Source: Eledone cirrhosa (lineage: Eukaryota). From it: a stretch of DNA of 64,000 nt. The notes under the pieces were generated by a model. The model worked only from the letters and a program-made list of their open reading frames with translations. It was not told the origin of the DNA and ran no database searches. Shown one piece after another: positions 9,865 to 12,328 of this stretch (position 1 is its first letter; every line of letters begins with the position of its first letter). The stretch covers positions 280,116,001 to 280,180,000 of the forward strand of contig OZ024740.1 in assembly GCA_964016885.1 (NCBI GenBank), read 5' to 3'. Position numbers and translations under genes: made by a program.

Positions 9865-10282
9865 TTCGCCTGATATAGGGGTTGCCTCCCTTGCCGATCC
9901 CCACCTGGAGTCAGCAATAGTCAGCCCTTGTATTAACATTGAACTAAAACCTGTTGAGAAAGTGGCTTCCTTGTTCAATCATCTTACCAGAAGCCTGACA
10001 TTATATATGTAGGTGGACGGTACTTGATTTAGGAGCCGCAGAAACCCAAATACTGGATTTTACCAACCTTCCAGGGGTCCGGGTAAATTTTCAATACCCA
10101 AATTACTTTATCGTTTTTTTGGCTATGCGAATGATTGTTTAACCATCGTCTCAGTGTGTTTGGCCTTTAACGTTTGTTATAGCTCTGGTTCATCTGAATC
10201 ATTGAGCACTTGCCGCACATCTCGGAGGTTGTTTTTCATTATTTCGTGGGCCGAAATGCGATTCTCGATAATTTATGTTTAA
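9865..10282 (+). mobile_element. Non-coding hammerhead-bearing element, subfamily A (putative PLE pLTR/retrozyme), flanked by CA/TA microsatellite
   Basis: Diverged homologue of the 616-bp unit at 11345-12572 (shared gttgagaaagt, cagaaaccca, gggtccgggta and a ~55-nt 3' block). Confidence 0.7.
9949..10084 (+). ncRNA. Type-I hammerhead ribozyme, U3-A8 core variant with long stem II (predicted cleavage after C10079)
   Basis: Stem I ACCUG/CGGGU; core UUGAGAA; A.A; stem II GUGGCU(U)CCU/AGGAGCCGC extended by AAUCA/UGAUU, UACC/GGUA, CCU(G)ACAU/AUGUAGG; GAAA; stem III CCC..CUGGA/UCCAG GGG; GUC triplet. Confidence 0.75.
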
Positions 10283-11345
10283 ATATACAAATATATATAT
10301 ATATATATACACAAATATATATATACATATATATATATACATATATATATATATTATATATATATATATATATACACAAATATATATATACATATATATA
10401 TATACATATATACATATATATATATATATATACACAAATATATATATACATATATATATATACATATATACATATATATATATATATATATATATACACA
10501 AATATATATATACATATATATATATACATATATATATATATATATACACAAATATATATATACATATATATATATACATATATATATATATTATATATAT
10601 ATATATATATACACAAATATATATATACATATATATATATACATATATATATATATTATATATATATATATATATATACACAAATATATATATACATATA
10701 TATATATACATATATATATATTATATATATATATATATATACACAAATATATATATACATATATATATATACATATATATATATATTATATATATATATA
10801 TATATATATATATATACAGATATATATATATATATATATATATATATATATACAGATATATATATATATATATATATATATACAGATATATATATATATA
10901 TATATATATATATATACATATATATATATATATATATATATATACAGATATATATATATATATATATATACAGATATATATATATATATATATATATATA
11001 TATATATATATATATATATATATATATATATATTATATATATATATATATATATATACATATATATATATATATATTATATATATATATTATATATATAT
11101 ATATATATATATATATATATATATTATATATATATATATACAGATATATATATATATATACATATTATATATATATATATATACATATTATATATATATA
11201 TATATATTATATATATATATATATATATATATATATATATATATATATTATATATATATATATATATATATATACATATATATATATATATATATATATA
11301 CAGATATATATATATATATATATATATACAGATATATATATATAT
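10283..11345. repeat. Interrupted (TA)n microsatellite array (tacacaaata / tacaga variants)
   Basis: Direct reading. Confidence 0.97.
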
Positions 11346-11577
11346 TTAGCTCTGGACATAGCTATCCACCAGTTAATTTTATTGCTCATTTTTTGTCGAT
11401 TCTATTGAGTGATGAATAGCTTTTGTTTTATTTTAACATGTCTATTGAGCACTCTTATTCGATATGTGTATTTCCACATTCCCTCGAATTGTTTTCGCGG
11501 ATATAGAGGTTATCTCCCTTGTCTAATGCCATGTGCGTTTTTCACTGGTAGTTAGCCCCTCTCCCGCCAGGAAAAAA

Positions 11578-11712
11578 GCTCGTTGAGAAAGTAAACTCCG
11601 TTCCGCTTACTCTAGTAGGCTTTTATATTTATATGTGAGCTGATAGAGTACAGTCTAAGGATTTACAGAAACCCATGAAGCTAGATTTAACACCTGTCTA
11701 GTGGGTCCGGGT
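11578..11712 (+). ncRNA. Type-I hammerhead ribozyme, U3-A8 variant (predicted cleavage after C11707)
   Basis: Stem I GCUCG/CGGGU; UUGAGAA; A.A; stem II GUAAA(C)UCC/GGAUUUAC extended by UACUCUA/UAGAGUA and GCUU..AUAU/AUAU..GAGC; GAAA; stem III CCCA(UGAAG)CUAGA/UCUAG UGGG; GUC. Confidence 0.75.
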
Positions 11713-12193
11713 ATGATTTTACATTCATTTAAATTATTGACGTATTGTTTTATTGATATTTTTTATCTGTTTGTCCCGAATCTTCTATTATCGATTTTTT
11801 ATCGTACGGTTGATTGTAGACTTGTTCTATATGTGACGGTATTTTAACGATAGTTATAGCTCTGATTCATCTGAATTATTGAGCCCTCTGCCGCTCATTT
11901 TGAATTTTGTTTATCGTGAACTCGTGCGCCGATTTTTCGATACTCGATCTTTCTAATATATTTAGCTCTGGACATAGCTATCCACCAGTTAATTTTATTG
12001 CTCATTTTTTGTCGATTCTATTGAGTGATGAATAGCTTTTGTTTTATTTTAACATGTCTATTGAGCACTCTTATTCGATATGTGTATTTCCACATTCCCT
12101 CGAATTGTTTTCGCGGATATAGAGGTTATCTCCCCTGTCTAATGCCATGTGCGTTTTTCACTGGTAGTTAGCCCCTCTCCCGCCAGGAAAAAA

Positions 12194-12328
12194 GCTCGTT
12201 GAGAAAGTAAACTCCGTTCCGCTTACTCTAGTAGGCTTTTATATTTATATGTGAGCTGATAGAGTACAGTCTAAGGATTTACAGAAACCCATGAAGCTAG
12301 ATTTAACACCTGTCTAGTGGGTCCGGGT
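12194..12328 (+). ncRNA. Type-I hammerhead ribozyme, U3-A8 variant, second tandem copy (predicted cleavage after C12323)
   Basis: Same sequence as 11578-11712. Confidence 0.75.

Follow-up and report, generated by a model that had tools for sequence, protein, structure and literature searches.

Non-LTR retrozymes of animals are non-coding, low-GC tandem repeats that carry one type I hammerhead ribozyme per unit and occur as anything from monomers to long arrays, and one of them has been described in a mussel (Cervera & de la Pena 2020, PMC7229834); the main text of that paper does not mention cephalopods. Such retrozymes have been proposed to be non-autonomous derivatives of Penelope-like elements (Li, Clavereau & Pollet 2026, bioRxiv 10.64898/2026.07.22.740005), and the same preprint reports that eight of nine Xenopus retrozymes did not cleave in vitro. 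Penelope-like elements themselves bear type I hammerheads in their pseudo-LTRs, with a helix I of 4–5 bp, an extra base between A9 and G10.1 and a conserved G10.1–C11.1 pair; these motifs are minimal, their helix II spanning 5–8 bp and their helix III being very short or missing, and are thought to act as dimers (Cervera & de la Pena 2014, PMC4209133). In the Poseidon element PAc of Anolis, reverse transcription starts at a fixed internal site downstream of the hammerhead, targets are AT-rich and copies are organised in tandem; ribozyme mutants were without effect on insertion in vitro, and the ends of the RNA did not coincide with the cut (Frangieh et al. 2024, PMC11167929). Natural variants of the hammerhead core include U3–A8 covariation, the core insertions 2a/2b, 6a and 13a and a U10.1–U11.1 mismatch (Perreault et al. 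2011, PMC3088659), as well as a saltern variant in which U3 faces G8 (PMC7151607). Core insertions can strongly slow hammerhead cleavage (PMC3088659), and the text of that paper describes neither an insertion between positions 11.1 and 12 nor a C3–A8 lineage.

The window analysed here (the whole stretch of DNA, 64,000 nucleotides long) contains a non-LTR retrozyme with a type I hammerhead; the family to which it belongs is probably a non-autonomous Penelope-like element. Its unit of 568–622 bp exceeds the ~170–400 nt of the retrozymes in PMC7229834 and lies inside the 51–972 bp of those in bioRxiv 10.64898/2026.07.22.740005. The core is non-canonical, helix II measures 76–78 nt and helix III is long and stable, whereas helix II of the published retrozymes is about 4 bp (PMC7229834). 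The type I topology, the short helix I, the extra base after A9 and the conserved G10.1–C11.1 are shared with the pseudo-LTR hammerheads, and U3–A8 covariation is shared with the Schistosoma Cercyon hammerheads (about 1,300 matches); the U–G and C–A states, the very long helices and an invariant A between C11.1 and G12, where the pseudo-LTR consensus (CUGANGAH...C GAAA) has no base, set the present family apart (PMC4209133). PAc resembles it in the AT-rich targets, the tandem organisation and the fixed internal start proposed here, but is autonomous and coding, with a minimal C3–G8 hammerhead that requires protein (PMC11167929). Unlike the core variants listed in PMC3088659 and PMC7151607, each a rare and isolated find and most of them from microbes or viruses, the variant core described here is carried by thousands of matches in one genome.

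Within the window, the family is represented by one isolated unit, A, and by two tandem units, B1 and B2, which differ at 3 positions (Table 1). The 3' end of B2 is the fixed end of the family and continues into (TA)n. The initial annotation had treated A and B as separate elements; the two can be aligned over the whole length of the unit, so they are not of independent origin, and A is instead a truncated member of a sister subfamily that also forms tandem arrays elsewhere in the genome. Among 3,414 genomic candidates for A, the 40 best-scored show 96–97% identity to it, one of them being the window itself.

Table 1. Coordinates of the repeat units, their predicted hammerheads and related features (positions in the window, except in the last row).
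Feature	Position	Strand	Remarks
Element A	9865..10282	+	Single 5'-truncated unit, ~581-bp subfamily, flanked by TA/CA microsatellite runs
Type I hammerhead of A	9949..10084	+	Predicted cut after C10079 (C17)
A stem I	9949-9953 (ACCUG) / 10080-10084 (CGGGU)	+	
A core 3-9	9954-9960 (UUGAGAA)	+	Extra base 9961
A helix II	9962-10039 (78 nt)	+	Extra A 10040
A G12-A14	10041-10043 (GAA)	+	Helix III 10044-10078
(TA)n microsatellite between A and B	10283..11344	.	Usual flank of the repeat family
Unit B1	11345..11960	+	616 bp; GC content 36%; no ATG-started frame above 47 aa
Type I hammerhead of B1	11578..11712	+	Predicted cut after C11707 (C17)
B1 core	11583-11589	+	Extra base 11590
B1 helix II	11591-11666 (76 nt)	+	Extra A 11667; G12-A14 11668-11670
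Conserved hairpin 3' of ribozyme	11857..11884	+	Counterparts in B2 and A (near 10182-10209)
Unit B2	11961..12576	+	616 bp, head-to-tail with B1
Type I hammerhead of B2	12194..12328	+	Predicted cut after C12323 (C17)
Arrays of the 615-bp subfamily (L093-L109)	G000:C1: 13.09-13.10, 36.02-36.03, 44.27-44.28, 49.83-49.84, 119.98-120.0 Mb		

All sequences, pairings and cut positions that had been quoted for A and B are present in the window, and the proposed hammerhead fold with a bulged helix III, of type I, agrees with the minimum-energy fold of the + strands of both, a three-way junction in which helix I is open (z-scores of −1.63 and −1.68, both modest). The junction is not formed by the − strands (z-scores of −0.22 and 0.08). 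The stem II of roughly 80 nt in the initial annotation likewise corresponds to helix II as delimited in Table 1. Copies of the core-independent sample introduced below (drawn from the matches listed) were also folded singly, and only 17 of 34 formed all three helices with a probability above 0.5. Per-copy folds show conserved unpaired bases in helix II, candidates for a tertiary contact with helix I, and, in distal helix III, variants of the types CUAG/CUAG, CUGG/CCAG and UCGG/CCGA (three copies were mis-parsed). In the predicted fold of a circular B monomer, stem I is absent (pairing probability 0.009). As had been anticipated, standard descriptors miss the motif: the window has no Rfam match at the gathering threshold, and the 49 matches obtained with E up to 10 are microsatellite-driven and include no hammerhead family. 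A second conserved hairpin lies 3' of the ribozyme, in which three of the ten consensus pairs carry double changes among 14 copies; it is a candidate protein-binding signal.

Searching the 3.0-Gb genome with the exact core pattern of A and B gave 1,328 matches, against none for the reversed control, so the motif is not a product of chance. When any letter was allowed at positions 3, 7 and 8 and directly after A9, the pattern matched 4,568 times (control 0), and anchors placed outside the ribozyme matched 3,819 times; all these counts are of units, not of insertions, and long arrays contribute heavily to them. A DNA search yielded 1,588 candidates for B in addition to those for A, and the best 40 of each set were scored. 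The units are non-coding (36–42% GC, longest ATG-started frame 47 aa), with no conserved reading frame found in the unit; they are repeated head to tail with one type I hammerhead each, in arrays that lie inside (TA)n. At an identity of 90%, pattern-bearing copies form 19 clusters. Different contigs share some B units without a single difference, which indicates that the B subfamily is young. Long and homogeneous arrays occur, with 17 or more units, and differences within the array number 0–5 in 14 of 15 arrays.

Several members of the family stand out. A 615-bp subfamily, in which both position 7 and the base following A9 are C, forms nearly invariant arrays of 14–26 units, which have G8 in one array and A8 in the rest, and appears to account for a large share of all units. 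An array of ~609-bp units (L161–L172, G000:C1:81.71–81.75 Mb) extends over about 37 kb; its alternating variants and a mean of 11 differences between units suggest expansion in place. More diverged relatives with an altered 3' strand of stem I (L063 on the + strand, first ~400 nt; L184; L217) are missed by the core patterns, so our counts underestimate the size of the family. Outside this genome, a 470-nt contig from another organism has a core that differs only at N7 and the base after A9. Viral contigs gave no match to the core pattern, and 51 pattern matches in metagenome contigs were discarded as chance, none of them fitting the family profile at E≤1 and only two having both short stems.

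Since pattern searches enforce the core, its conservation was measured in a sample drawn via the outside anchors. The 100 of 3,819 anchor matches listed supplied 34 insertion sites, each array being represented by a single unit, with a mean pairwise identity of 69%. Ten canonical positions (U4, G5, A6, A9, G12, A13, A14, A15.1, U16.1 and C17) are conserved in 337 of 340 cells, compared with a mean conservation of 68% over 248 columns outside the ribozyme; the 34 sites are related, and seven come from one young subfamily, so these cells are not independent. N7 takes all four letters in the same sample (10 U, 13 G, 7 C and 4 A), and the three core segments exceed all other conserved blocks in length. 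The conserved core claimed from A and B thus extends to copies chosen without regard to it.

Pairing was examined in 18 pattern-selected representatives (of 19; one truncated copy was dropped), leaving distal helix III, where the alignment register slipped, out of the formal pair count. Bases are paired in 92% of 426 cells, compared with 28–51% in slid controls, and 29 cells show double changes, against 13.1 in shuffles (0 of 500 shuffles reached as high a value); two of five measures were not above shuffles. The initial annotation had stated that the helices change together. This applies to helix II, where four of eight base pairs show double changes, but not to stem I, where the 3' strand is fixed, the 5' side alone varies and none of the five pairs has a double change. 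RNAalifold recovered the same three-way junction unprompted. Selection across subfamilies therefore acts on the hammerhead core and on the pairing of helix II, and the family motif is almost certainly a hammerhead by descent.

The core nevertheless departs from the canonical form at the pair between positions 3 and 8. U–A occurs in 3,354 of the 4,568 matches, U–G in 1,122, C–A in 62 and C–G in two, only one of which is real, leaving the canonical C3–G8 nearly absent; a purine at position 3 or a pyrimidine at position 8 is seen in just 28 matches, some of them spurious. The core-independent sample has 27 U–A, five U–G, two C–A and no C–G among its 34 sites from the matches listed. U–G copies belong to several subfamilies and are also found in long arrays, and about 51 of the 62 C–A copies look like one group when judged by eye. 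After masking of the four variable core columns, a midpoint-rooted tree built from 45 representatives requires, if there was no recombination between subfamilies, at least seven changes among the four states and places C–A lineages on inner parts as well as at the tips. U3–A8, which had been put forward as the defining trait, is thus one of several pyrimidine-3/purine-8 combinations in the family, and like the retrozyme class itself it was already known, from natural core variants and from Schistosoma Penelope hammerheads (PMC3088659, PMC4209133).

A protonated C–A pair can mimic a U–G wobble, which would make all four states near-pairs. Next to helix II, the core holds two further bases. The base after A9 is A in 21 and C in 13 of the 34 sites, and an extra A precedes G12 in all 34, so that G12 does not directly follow N11.1; the adjacent G10.1–C11.1 is kept (G in 30 of 34, C in 34 of 34). 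What had been described as an A10.1–A11.1 mismatch is therefore better read as two insertions round G10.1–C11.1, of which the 5' one is A or C; an alternative drawing shows the extra A as part of an A–A or C–A mismatch that closes helix II. No active hammerhead in which an additional A precedes G12 was found in the literature searched. In one subfamily (L203, L211, L231 and L223), G10.1 is replaced by A or U and two bases on each side of helix II seem unpaired; three of these copies also lack one pair of proximal helix III.

These departures bear on whether the ribozyme is active. It is conceivable, though unlikely in our view, that the family is mobilised by Penelope-type enzymes while its hammerhead is slow, protein-assisted or dead, the fold serving as a structural part of an RNA–protein particle and the clustering of truncated ends described below reflecting stalled reverse transcription. 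The relaxed 3–8 pair, including a C–A lineage that has spread, and the extra A in the core would fit such a ribozyme, as would the Anolis precedent of a hammerhead that requires protein and is dispensable in vitro (PMC11167929). On the other hand, the residues with catalytic roles (G12, G5, C17 and A9) are near-invariant over ~30% divergence while N7 is free to vary, and pyrimidine-3 and purine-8 are kept in 4,540 of the 4,568 matches. We consider it likely that at least the U–A copies would self-cleave. Less likely than not is a remodelled active site in which position 3–8 would tolerate any pyrimidine–purine combination (U–A, U–G and C–A), held by the extra A and the long helix II, and which would cut in vivo.

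The insertions themselves have a characteristic form. Among the fetched loci, which were selected by various searches, 138 complete insertions could be delimited, of which 125 end at unit position 603–616, almost always into TA; their 5' ends are scattered over the unit, partial tandems occur among them, and their flanks are mostly TA runs. The fixed 3' end lies 253 nt beyond the predicted cut, which fits internal initiation by analogy with PAc. One locus (L009) contains a head-to-head inverted, 5'-truncated copy, a configuration described as a Penelope hallmark, and the ends, the TA targets and the inversion all match the marks described for Penelope-like elements (PMC8557442). Partial matches of 50 bp were considered as counterparts of the 30–40-bp Penelope-type tail and set aside, as they look like edges of the search window.

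The same marks bear on whether the family could be satellite DNA spreading at the DNA level, by unequal crossover, rolling-circle replication or extrachromosomal circles, with a fossil ribozyme inside. Long homogeneous arrays, and the one array with alternating variants, would be expected of a satellite. Fixed 3' and ragged 5' ends, the targeting of microsatellites, 5' inversion and dispersed solo copies would not, and neither would an RNA structure under selection across subfamilies; we judge this origin to be very improbable.

The 138 insertions had hinted that 5' ends gather just beyond the predicted cut, and we mapped 5' junctions relative to this cut at loci where a TA run precedes a 3' anchor. 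The 100 of 2,624 matches listed gave 75 loci and 67 distinct junctions, in a sample that holds only subfamilies with the 3' anchor and shares a few sites with the 138 insertions. Of these 67 junctions from the matches listed, 25 fall at +7 to +35, 18 of them at +7 to +20, and none at 0 to +6. The interval from −5 to +35 holds 23 of the 67, compared with 4 at −45 to −5 (p=0.0003) and 5 at +35 to +75 (p=0.0009). This pile-up spans several subfamilies, and in B the stretch is not richer in AT or TA than its neighbours. Run-off of reverse transcriptase at a cleaved RNA end would fit the pile-up, as would a transcription start at that stretch. Since positions 0 to +6 are free of junctions, the pile-up is explained equally well by arrest at the folded ribozyme, stem I of which extends to +5, and a pile-up that begins at +7, just 3' of stem I, rather than at 0 would also suit the slow or inactive ribozyme considered above. 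We therefore take the pile-up as a lead on cleavage and not as proof.

Many copies have fragments of Penelope-type RT and GIY-YIG in their vicinity (the RT match is below the Pfam cut-off), and a homologue search with one RT fragment returned 24 matches. At the loci inspected, these frames are separated from the units by microsatellite, and the nearby Penelope-type elements have small C3–G8 hammerheads of their own and ends unrelated to the unit. These neighbours are therefore no more than candidates for the role of mobilising partner, which a LINE-type enzyme may fill instead. Among the Penelope-type fragments in the fetched loci, which sample the genome, no autonomous element sharing the unit was found.

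This last point is relevant to the idea that the unit is itself the pseudo-LTR of an autonomous Penelope-like element, with arrays and solo copies as its truncated insertions. The unit is similar in size to the terminal repeats of the neighbouring Penelope-type elements, Penelope hammerheads are marked by the same extra base after A9 (PMC4209133), pseudo-LTRs form the sister group of vertebrate retrozymes (bioRxiv 10.64898/2026.07.22.740005), and the genome was sampled rather than fully surveyed. We nevertheless find this origin quite improbable, given arrays of up to dozens of units without an ORF, the lack of a conserved reading frame in the unit, and neighbouring RT/GIY-YIG frames that have ends of their own beyond the intervening microsatellite at the loci inspected.

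Among the neighbours, one abundant element of Penelope type, the C terminus of which matches the GIY-YIG domain of Pfam, recurs at L144 (− strand, about 430–900), L205, L233, L271, L125 and L072. It has a small canonical hammerhead-like motif in its 3' region, ends just inside its own apparent ORF start, as described for the Anolis element, and is often one microsatellite away from a retrozyme; L144/L268 and L271 have the same +16 junction adjoining it. A second Penelope-type family carries a minimal hammerhead motif about 660 nt after a GIY-YIG frame (L059, + strand); it has a Cys linker, and we take it to be Neptune-like. Another short repeat, with an internal inverted repeat, occupies the same microsatellites beside TA runs at L160, L125, L072 and L209.

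Taken as a whole, the evidence makes it reasonably probable that a retrozyme cycle is at work, in which the ribozyme would cut transcripts into unit-length RNAs that Penelope-like enzymes would copy into TA microsatellites. The arrays would be transcribed and the ribozyme would cut after C17, acting as a monomer by virtue of its stable helix III. Unit-length linear or circular RNAs would form, as inferred for this family from the retrozymes of mussel, coral and axolotl. On the model of the Anolis Penelope element, a borrowed RT/GIY-YIG protein would nick AT-rich DNA and reverse transcription would start at a fixed internal site, which would account for the fixed 3' end. Copying would run towards the 5' end and often stop just 3' of the ribozyme, and copying past the ribozyme would give more than one unit. 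Long arrays probably also expand in place. Several observations weigh against this cycle: the spread of a C–A lineage and the near-absence of C3–G8, the extra A before G12, the incomplete folds of half of the sampled copies and of the circular B monomer, the Anolis and Xenopus results, the equal fit of the pile-up with arrest, and the failure to find an autonomous element with this unit in the fetched loci.

Why Penelope-type elements retain a hammerhead has been addressed by one biochemical study, which found it dispensable in vitro. To this question the present family contributes about 4,500 natural copies, some of very recent origin; their core is under strong selection, and truncated ends leave a footprint next to the cut. 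The natural series at position 3–8 (U–A, U–G, C–A and one C–G) in a single scaffold, together with an invariant core insertion, makes the limits of the active site testable. If the remodelled core does cut in vivo, the pile-up would become genome-scale evidence for cleavage in Penelope-type retrotransposition, and similar oversized ribozymes would lie hidden from current descriptors in other animal genomes. Since Rfam misses the motif, ribozyme censuses of animal genomes may well undercount. No description of the motif was found in the accessible literature on hammerheads in octopus or cephalopods, on variants of the 3–8 pair or on insertions at G12/C11.1. The combination of a 76–78-nt helix II, an invariant A before G12, a relaxed 3–8 pair and a retrozyme in a cephalopod-like genome was likewise not found in print there, and a prior description may exist.

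Elsewhere in the window, positions 9240–9700 hold decayed sequence that may be mariner transposase-like, and a 31-kb region (20812–51974) is mostly TA microsatellite. A 47-bp tandem repeat occupies positions 63303–64000 with 14.7 copies.
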